From IMG/VR virus record IMGVR_UViG_3300000116_000126, positions 1-29,482 of that record: a stretch of 29,482 nt of DNA. One strand, 5' to 3'. The position numbers were made by a program, and so were the translations under genes. The stretch comes from a virus. Below the pieces are notes generated by a model. It was not told the origin of the DNA. It did not search any database and was given only the letters and a program-made list of their open reading frames with translations. Position 1 is the first letter of the stretch. Each line of letters begins with the position of its first letter. Of the stretch, positions 1 through 29,482 are shown piece by piece.

Positions 1-70
1 TTTTTTATAAGCTACTTCGGCTTTTCTTAAATCATCTATAAGGCTAGTTCCTATTTTTGTATCTTTATCT
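1..70. repeat. Terminal direct repeat, copy 1 (identical to 29413..29482)
   Basis: Read base by base: ttttttataagctacttcggcttttcttaaatcatctataaggctagttcctatttttgtatctttatct occurs at both window ends. Confidence 0.95.
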
Positions 71-171: not shown

Positions 172-201
172 AATATAAAATATAAATAAGTTTGATTTGT
201 T

Positions 202-7565: not shown

Positions 7566-8083
7566 TATTCTATCTCTTTACTTACGAATTTTAAAAATTG
7601 TTGTGTGTCTTGTGCGTATGCCTTGATAAAGTCTTTAGGTAAATCTCTATATGCTACATTAAAAGCATCAGTAAAGAAGTTGCTAGGCTTAACACCATAT
7701 AGCTTTATATTCCTAGCTATGCTAAACACTAAACTCTTGCGTGGTATAAACCTACCCTTTTTATCTCTAACACCTTGTATGCCTTTGCGTACTGCCCACT
7801 TGTCTATAACTCCTGATGGTGGTTGTTTTGTAGTGTACTTGTAAGGCGAGTTAGGTGCTTTAGCACTTGACTTACTACCCTTAACCCCTTTATCTACAAA
7901 CTTAGCGTAACCCTCTGCTACAAAAGACATATCTACTGCACCACTAGGATAAACCTTAATAAAGTACCCTAGACTACTACCTAAATCGCCACTAGCATTT
8001 CTGCCTTTAGCGTTTAATATACCTCTAGCAGTCTGTACTACCTTTTTGCCAAAGGTGTCTAATACTTTATCTACATTACTCAT
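7565..8083 (-). CDS. Head-tail joining or tail-completion protein (HK97 gp10-like)
   Basis: 172-aa ORF. ASGDLGSSLGY...AEGYAKFVDKGV resembles the TG-L...YA..VE.G signature of the HK97 gp10 family (recollection only). Confidence 0.4.
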   Translation of the reverse strand: MSNVDKVLDTFGKKVVQTARGILNAKGRNASGDLGSSLGYFIKVYPSGAVDMSFVAEGYAKFVDKGVKGSKSSAKAPNSPYKYTTKQPPSGVIDKWAVRKGIQGVRDKKGRFIPRKSLVFSIARNIKLYGVKPSNFFTDAFNVAYRDLPKDFIKAYAQDTQQFLKFVSKEIE

Positions 8084-8544
8084 TATGCAGTTGCTATTAC
8101 TACCTCAATATCTAAAGTAACAGTAGCAGTTGCACTATAAGCGTATAACGCTTCTATCTCTGCTAATGCAGTTTGTGCTGCTTTACTTGTTGCGCCTTTT
8201 ACATCTTTTGCGCCATTTATCATATAAATACTACCACCAGCTCTGACTTCTTCTGCTGCCGATGTAGCGTTACTAGCTTTAGTAATTATTACAGAGTTAG
8301 TATCATCTAAATTAGTAATTCTGATATACTTAATATCATCATAGTCAAATTCAGGTGAAGTAGGTGAACTATCAAAGTTTGCTAATGTTGTAGCAGTTTG
8401 TGCAGTTAGAGTATATATCCTTTTTGATATATTACCTACACTTGCAATAGTATGCGTTGTAGTTGTGTCATAGGTTGCTCCACCTAATGTTAGTTCTTCT
8501 TTTACTTGAACTGTTAAAGTACTTGGTGTAATTGTTGTTGCCAT
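8083..8544 (-). CDS. Abundant-looking structural protein (T/S/A-rich, 153 aa)
   Basis: First gene downstream of the TA-rich control region 8545..8686. Beta-rich T/A/S composition. TAATG coupling to the next gene. Confidence 0.4.
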   Translation of the reverse strand: MATTITPSTLTVQVKEELTLGGATYDTTTTHTIASVGNISKRIYTLTAQTATTLANFDSSPTSPEFDYDDIKYIRITNLDDTNSVIITKASNATSAAEEVRAGGSIYMINGAKDVKGATSKAAQTALAEIEALYAYSATATVTLDIEVVIATA

Positions 8545-8686
8545 TTTTTAATTAATTTTCTTTATTATATATATTATTATTATATTACTATTATATATCT
8601 ATATATATATATTATATAGTGTATATATTCTTGTTTGTGTCCTTTTGTTGTTACGCATTTGATGTAACTCATTCATTTTGAGATAG
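8545..8686 (-). promoter_or_regulatory. TA-rich intergenic control region R1, with a conserved 34-nt box at 8626..8659
   Basis: 142-nt gap that is almost pure A/T from about 8545 to 8625. The box tattcttgtttgtgtccttttgttgttacgcatt matches 18911..18944 at 28 of 34 positions with no gaps. Confidence 0.55.
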
Positions 8687-9181
8687 TTAGGATATTGCGA
8701 CATTTCCACTACAATTACTTGCATTAAATCCTACCTCTATACTGACATTAGCAGTCCACCCACTAACCTCATTGTCGAACCTTTCTGTAAAAGGCTCACA
8801 ACTAACACTAGGACTTATTGCAACCTCTGTTTGAAAGTCAGGTATGTTTTCGTACTCTCCTGTTCTATTCTTTAGCAGACTAATAACATCGCCAATAGTT
8901 TCTAGCGTATCACTCAACACATCTCTCTCGTTGCTCTCATCTTTGCTTACTAAGTCCATTACAATAATCTGAAACGAATATGTTAGCGTGTGCTGTGCAA
9001 AGTTAGCAGTAGCAGTAGAAACGTGAAGTAGTGGGTATGTGGTTTCTGTTAGGTCAATCTCAAATATATCGCCTATGGTCGTTGTGTTTATTTGAAAGTG
9101 TGTGTTTCCTATTTCTTCAAATATGCCATACAACATTTGTAGCGTTATGTTTTTAATCTCTGTTCCTGTTGTTAGTATCAT
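8687..9181 (-). CDS. Hypothetical virion-associated protein (164 aa)
   Basis: ORF whose ATG forms an ATGA overlap with the stop of the -1 frame of the upstream gene. Confidence 0.45.
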   Translation of the reverse strand: MILTTGTEIKNITLQMLYGIFEEIGNTHFQINTTTIGDIFEIDLTETTYPLLHVSTATANFAQHTLTYSFQIIVMDLVSKDESNERDVLSDTLETIGDVISLLKNRTGEYENIPDFQTEVAISPSVSCEPFTERFDNEVSGWTANVSIEVGFNASNCSGNVAIS

Positions 9182-9950: not shown

Positions 9951-10024
9951 ACTATAAAATATAAAAGTTAAAATTTGAGTATAATTGCAACGTTTTGTTA
10001 ATTAAGATTGTTTGTTTGTAAAAG

Positions 10025-12861: not shown

Positions 12862-13036
12862 ATCTATACAATTTAATAATTCCTATTGGTGCGTGTTCAT
12901 CGCTTAGTACTATATCTACATCATCAAAAGTCATTTCATCTAGGTTTATTATGTATTCTAATTGTCCTAGTTCGTCATAACATTCTATGATGCTCAATCC
13001 ATAGCCTACTAATCGTTGTAAATCATCATAAATCAT
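12809..13036 (-). CDS. Small, strongly acidic protein (75 aa)
   Basis: ORF directly downstream of the sigma-like gene. The first ~50 residues are very D/E-rich (DDLQ, ECYDELGQLEYIINLDEMTFDDVDIVLSDEH). Confidence 0.4.
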   Translation of the reverse strand: MIYDDLQRLVGYGLSIIECYDELGQLEYIINLDEMTFDDVDIVLSDEHAPIGIIKLYRYGQQKENGHSKLDGKDL

Positions 13037-13547
13037 TACGCTTTTCTTTTAATCTATCTTTTATATATTCTTTTACTTTCTTTATTGTTATGTAGATATT
13101 CATTCTGCTTATCTTGGTCTTTTTACTAAGGCTAGAATAGGTATATTTTCTGCCATCATTATCACCAAGTACATACAGTCTAAATAGTTCTCTATCATAC
13201 CAATACAACTCTGACAGAATTTCATTAATCCTATCAGCATCTTGTATAAAATATAAATCTTCTGCTTTTTGTTTTAATCCTAGCTTCATTAAATCATCAT
13301 CAAAGCTAACATCTTTGTATGCTCTATTGTATTTGTAGTAGTATCTTGATGTCTTAGAATAGTAGTTATTCTTGCATAGCCTTATAAAGTAGTACTTAAT
13401 CTTTTTATCTCTTATAAGTTGCTCTAGCTTTTCGGTATCTTCGCATAGATATATAAATACCTCTTGGGTAACATCATCTAAGTCTTTTGCTGGTATGAAG
13501 TTCGCAGCAGTATCTTTCAGTTGTGTAAATAGTTCATTATCAATCAC
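13026..13547 (-). CDS. ECF-like sigma-70 family sigma factor (phage-encoded)
   Basis: 173 aa. Region-2-like DDVTQEVFIYLCE...YFIRLCKNNYY and a region-4-like HTH, RELFRLYVLGD...YTYSSLSKKTKISRMNIYITIKKVKEYIKDRL. GTG is the only possible start in this frame. Confidence 0.55.
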   Translation of the reverse strand: MIDNELFTQLKDTAANFIPAKDLDDVTQEVFIYLCEDTEKLEQLIRDKKIKYYFIRLCKNNYYSKTSRYYYKYNRAYKDVSFDDDLMKLGLKQKAEDLYFIQDADRINEILSELYWYDRELFRLYVLGDNDGRKYTYSSLSKKTKISRMNIYITIKKVKEYIKDRLKEKRNDL

Positions 13548-13609
13548 ATAGCATTATACGCAAAAAAGAATATAAGTTTATAGGTGTTGATAAATAGTTA
13601 TGAACTAAG

Positions 13610-15450: not shown

Positions 15451-16041
15451 TTAGTCATTTAACATCTCGTTTCTAACACTTTGCCAAGTGTCCATTACAT
15501 TATTCTTTTTAGTTCCGAACTTACTTTCGTTCTTACTCCAAGTCTTTAGCCTACGAGCAATATCAAAAGTCTTTTGTAGTTCATACCTTAACCTAGTCTT
15601 TGACTTGTTAGGCTCTGTCCAATAGTCCACAAACGCTTCTAACATCTCTACACTATATAGTTCTTTGAAAGCAGATACCTCTATAATAAACTTATTGCTA
15701 ACTGTATCTAAATTGCGCTTCTTAGGCTTGTCATTAAGCTGGTACGATTTATAGTTTACGACTGTTATGAGAGAGTTTTTAGTAGTGCTTGATATATCTA
15801 TATACCCTTGCGCTTTTAATCTCTGTAAACGCTTGTAAATAGTAGAGGGTTTTAGGTGTAGTTCTTCACTTGCAGTTATCCTACCTGTGATAAACTCACC
15901 CACCTCAACCTTTCTACCATAGACTACATTGGGTGTCGTGTTGGCTTTGAGTATGCACCACACGAACACCTTTAGTAGTTCTGCATCTGCAAATACTCCG
16001 TTATCTAATATCTTACGATGTAGCTTAATGTAGCCTTGCAT
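15451..16041 (-). CDS. Replication initiator or replisome-organizer-like winged-helix protein
   Basis: 196 aa. The N-terminus GYIKLHRKILDNGVFADAELLKVFVWCILKAN...GEFITGRITASEELHLKPSTIYKRLQRLKAQGYI follows the pattern common in phage replication-organizer proteins. Confidence 0.45.
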   Translation of the reverse strand: MQGYIKLHRKILDNGVFADAELLKVFVWCILKANTTPNVVYGRKVEVGEFITGRITASEELHLKPSTIYKRLQRLKAQGYIDISSTTKNSLITVVNYKSYQLNDKPKKRNLDTVSNKFIIEVSAFKELYSVEMLEAFVDYWTEPNKSKTRLRYELQKTFDIARRLKTWSKNESKFGTKKNNVMDTWQSVRNEMLND

Positions 16042-16256
16042 TACTTAGTCAGTTTATATTGTGCGTATCTTACAGGCTCACCAAACTTGTTTTGACTTTT
16101 TAACATTATAGTTTCTATATCATAACCATCTTCTTTTAGTTCAAAGATGCGTGTAGCTAATCTCATAATACTATAATCGAAGAACGCTTGAACAGGAGTT
16201 AATGCACCTACCTCTTGCAGATGTCTTAGTACTTTTTCTTTTTGTGTCAATTTCAT
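16041..16256 (-). CDS. Small winged-helix DNA-binding protein
   Basis: 71 aa. LRHLQEVGALTPVQAFFDYSIMRLATRIFELKEDGYDIET...VRYAQYKL is typical of small phage HTH proteins. Confidence 0.55.
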   Translation of the reverse strand: MKLTQKEKVLRHLQEVGALTPVQAFFDYSIMRLATRIFELKEDGYDIETIMLKSQNKFGEPVRYAQYKLTK

Positions 16257-16260
16257 AATT

Positions 16261-16509
16261 TTATTTGTTAATGGTTTGTTTTACTTCTACAATAATATCC
16301 ATCAGACTATCATAGATAGTTTCTACATCTTCATTATTGTTGGTAAATTTAATAATTTCTTTTTCATATTGGTCTGCTACTTTCAAAAGTCTGTTAAACT
16401 TTAGCTTTACTATCTTGGAGTGTGTACCCTTGAGATTGTATAGCTGCTCGTTAAAGCATCTAAAGGTAGCTATTAGTAATTGTAAATCTATTGTATGTTC
16501 TTTTGTCAT
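16261..16509 (-). CDS. Hypothetical protein (82 aa)
   Basis: ORF in the operon. No motif recognised. Confidence 0.45.
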   Translation of the reverse strand: MTKEHTIDLQLLIATFRCFNEQLYNLKGTHSKIVKLKFNRLLKVADQYEKEIIKFTNNNEDVETIYDSLMDIIVEVKQTINK

Positions 16510-16904
16510 TACGCTAATGCTTTACGAATTTGTATAAGGTCTGATATTGCTCTATCTACCTCATCTAATGCTTGTAGTTCGTTAATACGTTCTATGCGTT
16601 CAGATTTGCTCTTATACTCTGCAAAGACTAAATCAAACGCTTCAATGTATTCAGGATACATCTTAGGGTTTTGTATGTATTGCTTGTGCAGTTTAAGATA
16701 GTGGTAGAAGTTAGTCCTATGCTTACAGAAGTGTGTAGCTAGTTCTGCTGGTTTCATACCACATTCCATAAGAATATTACATATTACCATTCTTGCCATT
16801 ACTTGTTCCTTATGCTTTGTCTTAACATTTATATCTTCTTGCTCGATAGATATATGTTTTGTTGTTATATACATAAGTAGTTCAATCTCTTTTTGTAAAT
16901 CCAT
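16509..16904 (-). CDS. Hypothetical protein with a DnaA C-terminal-like HTH (weak)
   Basis: 131 aa. VMARMVICNILMECGMKPAELATHFCKHRTNFYHYLKLHK resembles DnaA domain IV. Confidence 0.35.
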   Translation of the reverse strand: MDLQKEIELLMYITTKHISIEQEDINVKTKHKEQVMARMVICNILMECGMKPAELATHFCKHRTNFYHYLKLHKQYIQNPKMYPEYIEAFDLVFAEYKSKSERIERINELQALDEVDRAISDLIQIRKALA

Positions 16905-17438: not shown

Positions 17439-17771
17439 TTAAAAGGGATTATCTTCGCCAAAAGCATTATCAAAACTCTCTAAGGCTTCTGTATTAGACT
17501 TCTTGAACTTCCAAGCATCAGCAGATGTGTAATAGTTTCCCTTATACTCTCTTGATGATAGATTGAACAATACAGTAAACTCATCGCCTATTGCCACATC
17601 TTTTAGTAGTGCTACTTTTTCTTCACCGAATAGATTGAAGCATAACTCTGAATTGTATTGATTACCTGTGTCAATTACAAACGATTGCTTTACCCATTGC
17701 TTACCAGCTTTGCTAGTTCCACTTTGTAAGTCTAATACTTTGACTAACTTACCTTTCATTTCTAAATTCAT
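17439..17771 (-). CDS. DUF3127 OB-fold, SSB-like protein
   Basis: 110 aa. KGKLVKVLDLQSGTSKAGKQWVKQSFVIDT...FNLFGEEKVALLKDVAIGDEFTVLFNLSSREYKGNYYTSADAWKF closely follows the DUF3127 pattern I know from Bacteroidota. Confidence 0.75.
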   Translation of the reverse strand: MNLEMKGKLVKVLDLQSGTSKAGKQWVKQSFVIDTGNQYNSELCFNLFGEEKVALLKDVAIGDEFTVLFNLSSREYKGNYYTSADAWKFKKSNTEALESFDNAFGEDNPF

Positions 17772-18764: not shown

Positions 18765-18799
18765 TGTTAAATGTTTAAATTAATAATTGTTTTGTTTGG

Positions 18800-18832
18800 C
18801 AAATATAAACACTTTTTTTAAATATAAACAAA
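18800..18832 (-). promoter_or_regulatory. Bacteroidota-type sigma-A promoter candidate (TTTG-N21-TATATTTG)
   Basis: On the minus strand, TTTG lies at 18832..18829 and TATATTTG at 18807..18800. This matches the published -33 TTTG / -7 TAnnTTTG consensus. Confidence 0.5.
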
Positions 18833-18840
18833 TTTTTGTA

Positions 18841-18960
18841 AAAATATTTATATAAATATATATATACTAGATAGTATTATATATATAAACTATAATATAT
18901 ATATAGAGTATATTCTTGTTAGTGTTACTTCGTTGTTACGCTTTAAGTGTAAGTAACTGA
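18841..18960 (-). promoter_or_regulatory. TA-rich control region R2, with a conserved 34-nt box at 18911..18944
   Basis: Second copy of the box (tattcttgttagtgttacttcgttgttacgcttt), again flanked by a (TA)n-rich tract and placed just after the stop of the preceding gene. Confidence 0.55.
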
Positions 18961-19680
18961 CTATAAGGGCATTAGGATATTTATAGGAAGTGTGCCATTT
19001 TCTTTGACTACCATACACCCTATTGCTGGTTTCTTTCCAGCTTTAGCGTATGCCATAGCGTAGCTTTCGTGGTCGATACCACAACCTACTTGACTGCCAA
19101 AGATACGGTACTTCTGACCTACATAGTGTTCGGTGTAGCATTGTGTGTGTAGGTGTCCTTGTATTGTATTCATCATATCGGCTCTGCATTTAGTTCTTGC
19201 AGTACCAGCTTCTCCGTGTATGTATTGCACATCATCTTTCACATAGCGTTCTACAAAATCCCAATTAGGAGTTTCTAAGACATCTTTGTAGCTTTTAATC
19301 CACTTACTAGGGATTGCACTAGTTTGTGCCTTACGCATTATTATTCTGTCGTGATTGCCTATTAATACAGTTGCATACTCAAAGGCTTTGTACCACTTTG
19401 CTATTTTGCTAATAGCTAGGTCAAGTTCATCACCACCACCCATACCATCAGCAGATGTTTCGTGATAGCTTGAGTAGTGGTTATCTATAACATCACCAAT
19501 AAATACAACCTCGTTGCAGTTGTGTGTATGGTATTGCTCTAGGCAAAATTCTAAATAACCATCAAGGCAAAATGGTTCGTGTATATCGCCTATGACTAAT
19601 ACGTTGTTAGTCTTGTGTTTGCGATAGTTTTGTAGTAGTTGTTCTTCATCAGGTTTTAATCGGTAACGATTGTTAGGCAT
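18961..19680 (-). CDS. Calcineurin-like metallophosphoesterase
   Basis: Motifs VIGDIHEP, GDVIDNH, GNHD and GHLH occur in the canonical order. I chose the ATG at 19678..19680 (MPNNRY), which overlaps the upstream stop by 8 nt, rather than the track start at 19722. Confidence 0.75.
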   Translation of the reverse strand: MPNNRYRLKPDEEQLLQNYRKHKTNNVLVIGDIHEPFCLDGYLEFCLEQYHTHNCNEVVFIGDVIDNHYSSYHETSADGMGGGDELDLAISKIAKWYKAFEYATVLIGNHDRIIMRKAQTSAIPSKWIKSYKDVLETPNWDFVERYVKDDVQYIHGEAGTARTKCRADMMNTIQGHLHTQCYTEHYVGQKYRIFGSQVGCGIDHESYAMAYAKAGKKPAIGCMVVKENGTLPINILMPL

Positions 19681-20439: not shown

Positions 20440-20600
20440 TATTTTCTTTTACGATATGATATATACTTGTCAAGTGTATAGATGATAGATACGCATAACA
20501 GAACGATTTGCAGTACTTGCTCAACCTCTGTAAAACTAATCATTAGCGTTACGCTATTTAATCCTAGTACATCTGCGTTTTGACTTATCAGACTTTTCAT
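20439..20600 (-). CDS. Small TM protein (53 aa), candidate holin or antiholin
   Basis: Hand-translated as MKSLISQNADVLGLNSVTLMISFTEVEQVLQIVLLCVSIIYTLDKYISYRKRK. TAATG overlap with the endolysin start. Confidence 0.4.
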   Translation of the reverse strand: MKSLISQNADVLGLNSVTLMISFTEVEQVLQIVLLCVSIIYTLDKYISYRKRK

Positions 20601-20653
20601 TATCTTTCTTTGTTAAATAGCTTTTTAGCTTTGTTATATTTTCTTCTTTAATC

Positions 20654-26996: not shown

Positions 26997-27037
26997 AATA
27001 TAAAATATAAAAAACTATGTTTTATTTACAATTAGTC

Positions 27038-29235: not shown

Positions 29236-29482
29236 TTAAAATATATTATACATTGATTTTATTTTACTAGCTATTTTACTAGCTTCTTTGATGCCAGCTT
29301 CTGCACTAGCTATTTTATTTATAAATGTTTTAGGTAAATCAATACCTAAATCTTTTGCTTGTGCTTTAGCTTTATCACCTAATTTAATAGCTTTAGAATA
29401 ATCATCTTCTATTTTTTTATAAGCTACTTCGGCTTTTCTTAAATCATCTATAAGGCTAGTTCCTATTTTTGTATCTTTATCT
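29236..29482 (-). CDS. C-terminal part of paralogue A (wraps to 171..1)
   Basis: Hand-translated as ...IEDDYSKAIKLGDKAKAQAKDLGIDLPKTFINKIASAEAGIKEASKIASKIKSMYNIF, with the stop at 29236..29238, 2 nt before the scaffold ATG. Confidence 0.75.
   Translation of the reverse strand, partial: DKDTKIGTSLIDDLRKAEVAYKKIEDDYSKAIKLGDKAKAQAKDLGIDLPKTFINKIASAEAGIKEASKIASKIKSMYNIF
29413..29482. repeat. Terminal direct repeat, copy 2 (identical to 1..70)
   Basis: Read base by base. See copy 1. Confidence 0.95.

Follow-up and report, generated by a model that had tools for sequence, protein, structure and literature searches.

The genome and its two intergenic units

The window considered here is the whole of a 29,482-nucleotide (nt) stretch from the IMG/VR virus record IMGVR_UViG_3300000116_000126, and the element in question is a conserved box with an adjoining TA-rich tract, together referred to as the unit, which occurs in two of its intergenic regions, R1 (8545..8686) and R2 (18765..18960). 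The window begins and ends with an identical 70-nt terminal repeat (1..70 and 29413..29482) and therefore represents a complete circular genome of 29,412 base pairs (bp), with a gene of about 116 amino acids (aa) crossing the circular junction. All of the genes, and all of the stranded features described below, are found on the minus strand. The gene order, mapped through PHROG, Pfam and NCBIfam scans, starts in the direction of transcription with R2 (18960..18765), which is followed by the early/replication genes for SSB (17771..17439), an HTH_39 protein, a DnaD/lambda-O-like initiator (16041..15451), NinG, a PAPS-reductase-like protein and a 173-aa protein (13547..13026). Next come a ParB-like nuclease, the small and large terminase subunits, a hairpin terminator, a 216-aa gene, a 164-aa gene and then R1 (8686..8545), beyond which lie the structural genes, a 153-aa gene being the first and those for a tape-measure-like protein, a protease, capsid, tail and portal coming after it, prior to the lysis genes and a metallophosphoesterase gene that lead back to R2. 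Genes for a helicase, a primase or a polymerase are absent from the phage. Its nearest cultured phages are the Nonlabens phages P12024S and P12024L, with a portal identity of 31%, and this relationship together with the presence of a single promoter of the TTTG/TAnnTTTG type points to a host within the Flavobacteriia.

R1 is the entire non-coding region between the 164-aa and 153-aa genes, and R2 extends from the last late gene, that of the metallophosphoesterase, to the first early gene. A first-pass annotation, made by a model from the letters of the window, had described these as the largest intergenic regions, which holds once the junction-spanning gene and a 53-aa open reading frame within 20440..20653 are counted as genes. 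This reading frame (MKSLISQNADVLGLNSV...) is hydrophobic-looking, and the 214-nt gap that houses it is found just upstream of the endolysin and holin-like genes. The same annotation had aligned 8626..8659 with 18911..18944 at 28 of 34 positions without gaps, a match that is confirmed and that is well above chance, as 200 shuffles of both regions gave a best score of 24 and a mean of 14.7. R1 and R2 are similar in register along 91 nt, with 70% identity. On the gene strand the sequence in each region is GCGTAACAAC-N6-ACAC-N-AACAAGAATATA (8656..8624 and 18941..18909), a pattern with just these two matches in the window even when three mismatches are allowed, the expected number being 0. The variable spacer is thus 6 nt in length and not the 8 nt originally given, for which the pattern matches nothing. 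The box, as first delimited, begins 27 nt past the preceding stop codon in R1 and 16 nt past it in R2, in line with the 16-27 nt reported, and a GTTAC pentamer is indeed present upstream in both regions (8664..8668 and 18953..18957), representing an inverted copy of the GTAAC core found inside the box.

Within R1 the box is made up of a distal half-site, GTAACA (8649..8654), and a proximal half-site, AGGACA (8638..8643), 11 nt downstream, which are followed by the tail CAAACAAGAA (8628..8637), corresponding to profile positions 20-29 that are invariant or nearly so in 38 distinct variants. A TA-only tract then occupies 8545..8627. In R2 both the distal (18934..18939) and the proximal (18923..18928) half-sites are GTAACA, with the tail CTAACAAGAA at 18913..18922 and the TA-only tract at 18839..18912. 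The TA-rich character noted earlier is pronounced, with 5 G/C in the 79 nt of 8545..8623 and 7 G/C in the 71 nt of 18838..18908. The R1 and R2 tracts rank, in that order, as the least stable and second least stable of the genome's 60-bp duplex segments, with ΔG values of -49.7 and -50.3 kcal/mol against a genome mean of -73.3 (sd 4.4), equivalent to z values of +5.35 and +5.23; the next segment has a z of 3.0. The R2 tract contains CTAGTA (18870..18865), and the stretch from the last late gene to the early promoter has this sequence, or a fuller TACTAG(A/T), in all types of relative, whether or not they carry the unit.

Downstream of the R2 unit, and outside it, is a host-type (Bacteroidota) early promoter, TTTG-N21-TATATTTG (18800..18832), which is the sole intergenic TAnnTTTG with a preceding TTTG in the window (18832..18829 and 18807..18800). 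Neither element of the Bacteroidota housekeeping promoter (-33 TTTG and -7 TAnnTTTG) is present in R1, as had been stated, or inside the R2 unit. An antisense TAnnTTTG promoter inside the box was judged by eye and set aside, as the spacing is wrong. No intrinsic terminator, in the form of a G+C-rich hairpin with a T run, is found in R1 or R2, no Rfam family matches the window at or above its gathering score, and sigma-70 and terminator scans returned results at chance level. DnaA boxes (TTATCCACA, one mismatch) number 9 in the window, where 8.7 are expected, and none is in R1 or R2. A 10-mer, AATATCCTAA on the gene strand, is located in register upstream of both units (8687..8696 and 18972..18981), forming the end of the 164-aa gene at R1 and lying inside the phosphoesterase gene at R2. 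Among R1 regions it is restricted to the closest relatives, and copying or gene conversion between R2 and R1 may have left it behind.

Conservation of the unit in relatives

The exact box pattern was found in 40 IMG/VR contig stretches, always in an R1-like or an R2-like context and, in several contigs, in both. Further relatives were fetched via the flanking proteins, and hence were not conditioned on the box, and were then scanned with a profile. Across dozens of uncultured relatives the unit has a common design, whereby two to six hexamer half-sites are repeated with an exact 11-nt period and are followed by an invariant CACAAACAA(G/T)AA, a hexamer that starts with TA and then 50-130 nt of TA-only DNA. 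The period is free of insertions and deletions in the 38 distinct variants, with the number of half-sites rising to three in loci L399 and L363 and to six in L409, and TTAC(A) is conserved 6-10 nt upstream of the box. The half-sites fall into classes, with GTAACA, AGGACA, TTAACA and TAGCA on the one side and CCGACA, CCGTCA and CCAACA on the other. All of the half-sites within one unit belong to a single class and the two units of one genome change together, as in L223, where both are of the TAGCA type. The TA tract drifts fast in both sequence and length with its composition kept, and the box stays fixed. Such strong conservation of the box next to a freely drifting tract argues for a sequence-specific function and not for mere homology. 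In the relatives checked, TA tracts of this kind occur solely beside boxes, apart from L314 and L328, which have the tract alone.

The unit is nonetheless facultative. The R2-type copy is widespread, the R1-type copy is confined to a subclade, and L237 and L247 have neither; in relatives that lack the R1 unit its flanking genes are 14-51 nt apart. The box is absent from the 185,579 bacterial and archaeal genomes that were searched, and megablast, blastn and tblastn comparisons with cultured phages gave no relative with either the box or the 173-aa protein, which is discussed below as a sigma factor. To judge from these alignments the box is under strong conservation in many relatives, and this, together with the co-variation of its half-sites with a phage protein (see the following section), lends support to the suggestion in the first-pass annotation that it is a recognition site for a phage-specific factor with a functional TA tract beyond it.

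Two side observations concern the surroundings of the units. The 153-aa gene directly after R1 (8083..8544) behaves as a swapped allele, with about 50% identity between relatives, compared with 90-99% for its neighbours on both sides; its product has no family annotation and has hundreds of homologues that begin MA(T/S)T. In unit-less relatives (the R2 regions of L121-L200 were compared) three to four direct TTGTTAAT(AAC) repeats with a period of about 12 nt overlap the early promoter. The same motif, as TGTGAATAAC, also precedes the gene for the 173-aa protein, which makes it probable that the motif is an operator for an early regulator.

The initiator and its relation to the unit

The initiator gene (15451..16041, 196 aa) is positioned in the replication module between those for SSB and NinG. 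Its product has a DnaD-like C-terminal domain and what appears to be an N-terminal winged helix, and is the proposed binder of the half-sites. Comparison with PHROG gives a DnaD-like helicase loader (E 5e-22) as well as replication-initiation families that include lambda-O-like proteins (E 2e-5). Residues 51-105 give sub-threshold matches to the winged-helix Pfam families PadR, HTH_24, LexA_DNA_bind and DnaD_N, and the putative recognition helix, which includes K70, extends from P65 to A77 within a Pfam HTH match at residues 58-83. The module houses two other small DNA-binding candidates, a 131-aa protein (16509..16904) with a weak match to DnaA domain IV (E 5e-4) and the HTH_39 winged-helix protein (16041..16256; E 2e-14), whose gene overlaps the start of the initiator gene.

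The presence of the unit follows that of the initiator's N-terminal part. Among loci that hold both the R2 position and the initiator gene, a full-length initiator homologue is accompanied by the unit in 40 of 40 cases, against 0 of 13 where the homologue is C-terminal-only (residues ~113-191), and unit-less genomes have either this shortened form or no homologue. The reverse test took R2-type boxes that are followed by 4.5 kb of sequence or more and by recognisable genes, and found a full-length initiator within 6.5 kb for 50 of 50, with a further locus, L025, lacking one. The loci are partly redundant and contain 25 distinct sequences of the initiator N-domain. No other early gene tracks the unit consistently, whether that for the 133-aa protein, SSB, the 131-aa DnaA_C-like HTH protein, the 66-aa and 75-aa proteins, the DUF6171 protein or the HTH_39 protein. 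L242 or L240, which have the unit and the N-domain, can be compared with L247 or L237, which have neither although most other early genes are common to both sides, and this contrast separates the initiator domain from the rest of the early region.

The identity of residue 70 changes with that of the half-sites. It is Asp in all seven helix variants associated with half-sites that start with YC (CCGACA, CCGTCA, CCAACA and similar). Distal half-sites such as GTAACA, TTAACA and TAGCA go with Lys, Asn, Ala, Thr or Ser instead, and two separate clades show this switch. For instance, L240 has the helix STVHNRLK with ATAACA/TTAACA half-sites and L242 has STVHDRLK with half-sites of the CC type, in proteins that are otherwise near-identical. 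Thus it is the predicted N-terminal winged-helix domain of the initiator that tracks the unit, and it is residue 70 of its putative recognition helix that co-varies with the half-site sequence.

Twin replication origins as the favoured interpretation

What, then, is the role of the unit, and why should a small genome carry two of them? On balance the evidence leans towards the R1 and R2 units being replication origins composed of iterons and a DNA-unwinding element, an alternative that the first-pass annotation had itself listed and that is favoured by the phased half-sites, the unstable TA tracts and the co-occurrence with the initiator. Two of the traits of an iteron-type origin are present, namely direct repeats in helical phase and an adjacent AT-rich unwinding element, and the replication module contains neither iterons nor an AT-rich candidate origin inside it. 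The combination of phased repeats, the easiest-melting tracts of the genome, a module devoid of iterons and a replisome that would have to be borrowed from the host fits an origin of this kind. The phased GTAACA-N5-GTAACA or AGGACA pairs, along with the inverted GTTAC upstream, would serve as docking sites for the initiator winged helix. Initiator molecules would sit side by side on one face of the helix, as set by the 11-bp period, and would melt the adjoining 75-80 bp of TA-only DNA, prior to recruitment of the host helicase and replisome by the DnaD-like C-terminal domain. R2, at the late/early junction, would represent the older and more widespread copy and R1, ahead of the structural genes in the late region, a second copy that belongs to one subclade.

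A more elaborate version of this scheme is also conceivable, although it is distinctly doubtful. Here the unit would be a portable origin cassette that travels with the DNA-binding domain of the initiator, and R1 with bound initiator would act as a programmed fork barrier, switching replication from circle-to-circle to concatemer formation, and/or as an initiator-dependent late promoter that couples the structural genes to replication.

A number of observations weigh against an origin function. The unit is facultative, as relatives with more distant or different initiators do without it, and no unit is present in the 6 kb upstream of initiators of about 43% identity, which come from genomes of a different architecture (L410-L415). 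The co-occurrence of initiator and unit is partly phylogenetic. In L025 (IMGVR_UViG_3300025141_004938) the same GTAACA box and TA tract, with the box at 636, stand before unrelated genes, and the 4.7 kb available downstream holds no initiator homologue; either this is a recent recombinant or the unit is able to work with another replication module. The L025 downstream region encodes another winged-helix protein, with an 'ASN-motif', and a 564-aa zinc-finger primase/helicase-like protein. The residue-70 relationship has its own exceptions in L406, L407 and L409, where the helix has Asn or Cys and yet the half-site nearest to the tail is CCAACA. The AlphaFold model of the initiator is poor (pLDDT 40, with homologue input of at least 79% identity), and the placing of residue 70 on the recognition helix accordingly rests on the sub-threshold Pfam alignments. 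The initiator model does not account for the invariant CACAAACAAGAA tail, the half-sites, at 6 nt, are short by the standard of iterons, there is no DnaA box cluster at the units of the type that a DnaA-dependent origin would have, and the fixed orientation of the unit to the genes, with R1 60-80 nt from a start codon, would also suit a promoter.

The 173-aa protein and candidate promoters

The protein encoded at 13026..13547 (173 aa), which the first-pass annotation had put forward as the factor that reads the box, has no sequence match in Pfam, PHROG or the PDB, and a sigma profile run against PDB sequences gave nothing significant. Its homologues are named sigma24 by JGI and NCBIfam TIGR02937 matches it with E 4e-8, below the curated cut-off. 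Comparison of its AlphaFold model (pLDDT 78) through Foldseek returned sigma factors for all of the top 50 PDB matches, the full-length ones being ECF sigmas. The protein is thus very probably a divergent ECF-like sigma, as had been proposed. It is the product of a core gene that is found in every relative, including those without the unit at R1 and R2.

Several features elsewhere in the genome touch on promoters. An exact 13-mer, TTTATATTTTATA, is found 2 nt before the ATG of three genes (9953..9965, 26999..27011 and 174..186, all on the minus strand). Two of the three sites are in gaps that have a hairpin terminator, and the sigma gene itself contains a fourth copy. The post-terminase site forms part of a promoter-like element with conservation throughout the family. 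This element is a better candidate target for a core sigma than is the unit, and it implies leaderless transcripts. Motifs common to the box tail and the post-terminase element (AATATACTC and ACAAACAA) occur in the window at chance frequency. Upstream of the sigma gene itself (13548..13609), close relatives share a conserved TGT[GT]AATAAC..TTATCAACAC..(T)GAAAC-N15-cGTATAAT that ends 5 nt before the GTG start, an arrangement that suggests a TATAAT-type promoter and a leaderless or near-leaderless mRNA.

Alternative explanations

Two of the competing explanations see the unit as a promoter. In the proposal of the first-pass annotation the 173-aa sigma would bring the host RNA polymerase to the box, GTAAC would be the -35 element and transcription would start in the TA tract, so that R1 would serve the late structural genes and R2 a second wave of early/middle genes. 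The identity of the protein speaks for this, as does the need for other promoters in a genome with just one canonical host-type promoter in 29.4 kb, and the orientation of the unit is fixed, with R1 60-80 nt upstream of a gene that in distant phages has its own promoter region. GTAAC is, moreover, a known ECF -35 core, being found in the TGTAAC of B. subtilis sigma-X. Phage ECF-like sigmas that read TA-rich motifs are also known, as in phiEco32 with TAATGTATA (PMC4331800). Set against this, the sigma gene is present whether the unit is there or not, and sigmas of 85-87% identity are found on both sides of that divide (L242 vs L247, L240 vs L237), so that, by the standard of co-occurrence in relatives that the proposal had set for itself, the link between sigma and box is not supported. 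The region-4 helix of the sigma has no consistent relation to the half-site class, with ISRMSIYTTIKG accompanying both GTAACA and TAGCA and its close relative ISRMSIYSTIKG accompanying CCAACA. The GTAAC...GAATA layout also fits a pair of -35 and -10 elements poorly, as the unit has two to six half-sites at an 11-nt period, the second of which falls in the 'spacer'; GTAAC is present and a conserved CAAGAA follows the distal half-site at 16-17 nt, the spacing of such a pair, but a -10 of the CGT type is lacking. Neither are the 50-130 nt of G/C-free DNA downstream explained, including in R2 where no gene start directly follows, and the promoter-like element after the terminase terminator is the better match for a core sigma. 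A sigma-dependent promoter is therefore improbable. An activator-dependent promoter or operator is unlikely too, though less so. Here the winged-helix protein would be a regulator acting at a PhoB-box-like class II site with a TATA-type hexamer 10-11 bp downstream or, in a hybrid form, transcription from the box would prime replication in the TA tract, in the manner of T4 oriF/oriG and the T7 primary origin. Two repeats with an 11-bp period before a TA-start hexamer resemble sites of the PhoB/OmpR type, and the direct repeats do end 10-11 bp before such a hexamer (TATACT, TATATA, GTATAT). JGI labels the initiator homologues as PadR-family regulators, the unit keeps one orientation to the genes, R1 is inserted immediately before a gene with a promoter of its own elsewhere, and co-occurrence and co-variation name the probable binder and not the effect of its binding. 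What sits poorly with activation is the DnaD-like C-terminal domain and the position of the gene in the replication module between SSB and NinG, the variable distance from box to early promoter in R2 (TA tracts of ~45 to 130 nt, with no fixed phasing), and a long, strictly G/C-free downstream tract that would not be expected of a plain promoter. That these two promoter readings retain the weight given to them here reflects the sequence-only basis of the analysis together with L025, the Asn/Cys helices, the unit-less initiators of ~43% identity, the CACAAACAAGAA tail, the promoter-like placement and the poor initiator model.

The remaining explanations do not involve the initiation of transcription. 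The units might mark transcript boundaries at the ends of two long co-directional operons, as a factor-dependent terminator or insulator or as an antitermination or RNA-processing site, which would be in keeping with boxes that begin 16-27 nt after an operon-like block, counted from the stop codon of its last gene, with a sense strand that is C/A-rich and G-poor, and with the need for boundaries in a circular genome transcribed in one direction. UAACAA also resembles part of the boxA antitermination sequence of ribosomal operons. This is, however, highly improbable, as R1 and R2 have no terminator-like hairpin and no Rfam family, and ordinary hairpin terminators are used elsewhere in the phage. 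An RNA hairpin formed between GTTAC and GTAAC was rejected, given that CC-type variants do not preserve the pairing and have a third direct repeat in its place, and direct repeats with an 11-nt period that co-vary with a DNA-binding helix indicate recognition of DNA and not of RNA. Equally hard to credit would be a packaging signal, in the form of a terminase-binding pac site, or a recombination hot spot providing a homology patch for module exchange; this has perhaps the slimmest prospect of all. Sites for the small terminase often consist of repeated motifs within bendable AT-rich DNA, the gene that immediately follows R1 is a swapped allele and the early genes after R2 are mosaic. Yet two co-oriented pac sites 10.3 kb apart would give genome pieces of unequal size, and the presence of the unit does not follow that of the terminase genes, which belong to the core in unit-less relatives as well.

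Significance

Taken as twin origins, the units belong to a kind that is known among phages, in which iterons and an unwinding element are found in two copies. What is new is this element family, the 11-nt phasing of its hexamers, the pure-TA unwinding tract and the host group. To our knowledge the replication origins of Bacteroidota phages are essentially undescribed, and the phage group to which this genome belongs has no cultured close relative. If the origin interpretation is right, the unit would provide a sequence signature for origins in hundreds of marine viral contigs, and unit and initiator together would represent a candidate minimal replicon from which genetic tools for marine Flavobacteriia could be developed. 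It would also offer a compact natural instance of the co-evolution of a protein with its DNA site, a single helix residue varying in step with the two bases that begin the half-site. The analysis further corrects a tempting mis-annotation, whereby a sigma factor plus a conserved box is taken for a promoter. Were the more elaborate cassette and fork-barrier scheme to be true, it would amount to the first described logic of replication and regulation for widespread uncultured phages of marine Flavobacteriia, with a single-residue K70/D70 recognition code.

Comparison with known systems

In architecture alone, the box is like those of the PhoB/OmpR type, which also have hexamer or heptamer direct repeats with a 10-11-bp period that are read by a winged helix, but the phage encodes no response regulator and its repeats number up to six. 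The origins T4 oriF/oriG and the T7 primary origin are composed of a promoter and then an unwinding element, and can serve gene expression as well. The unit shares with them a factor-specific site that has a fixed orientation and immediately precedes a 50-80-bp AT-rich tract; it differs in that no phage RNA polymerase or MotA-like activator was identified in the genome, and any promoter in the unit is only a candidate. With phage lambda, as with iteron plasmids, the comparison concerns the division of labour within the initiator, where the N-terminal domain reads repeats beside an AT-rich region and the C-terminal domain recruits the helicase, as is proposed here. In those systems the iterons and the DNA-binding domain of the initiator evolve together and are exchanged as a pair. 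The lambda iterons are 19-bp sites inside the O gene and those of plasmids are 17-22 bp in length. The PHROG similarity of the present initiator to O-like proteins is weak (E 2e-5).

The gp36 system of phage phiEco32 resembles the present genome in having a divergent ECF-like sigma in the early region and a TA-rich motif (TAATGTATA) upstream of late genes (PMC4331800). The unit departs from it in that it does not co-occur with the sigma and in that its repeat geometry is neither that of -35 and -10 elements nor that of a single -10-like element.

The fullest parallel for the proposed arrangement is with the Bacillus phage SPP1, where oriL and oriR are some 13 kb apart, each has direct repeats as well as an AT-rich unwinding element, and the origin-binding protein, gp38, binds both (PMC6316719). 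SPP1 oriR is placed in the midst of the virion genes, where it occupies one of the longest intergenic regions, and a proposed role for it is that of stalling forks and so triggering the switch to concatemeric replication (PMC6316719). The differences are clear, as there is no sequence similarity, the repeats here are 6-nt half-sites with an 11-nt period, the unwinding element is almost pure TA, and the host is a member of the Bacteroidota where that of SPP1 is a Firmicute. Moreover, SPP1 has its own helicase and helicase loader, and its initiator gene contains oriL, while in the present phage the unit nearest to the initiator gene is 2.9 kb upstream. The likenesses are nevertheless of organisation: a circularised genome transcribed in one direction, two origins (those here being proposed ones) about 10-13 kb apart, direct repeats with an AT-rich unwinding element in each, one copy that interrupts the virion-gene region, and a phage-encoded replisome organiser that relies on the replisome of the host.

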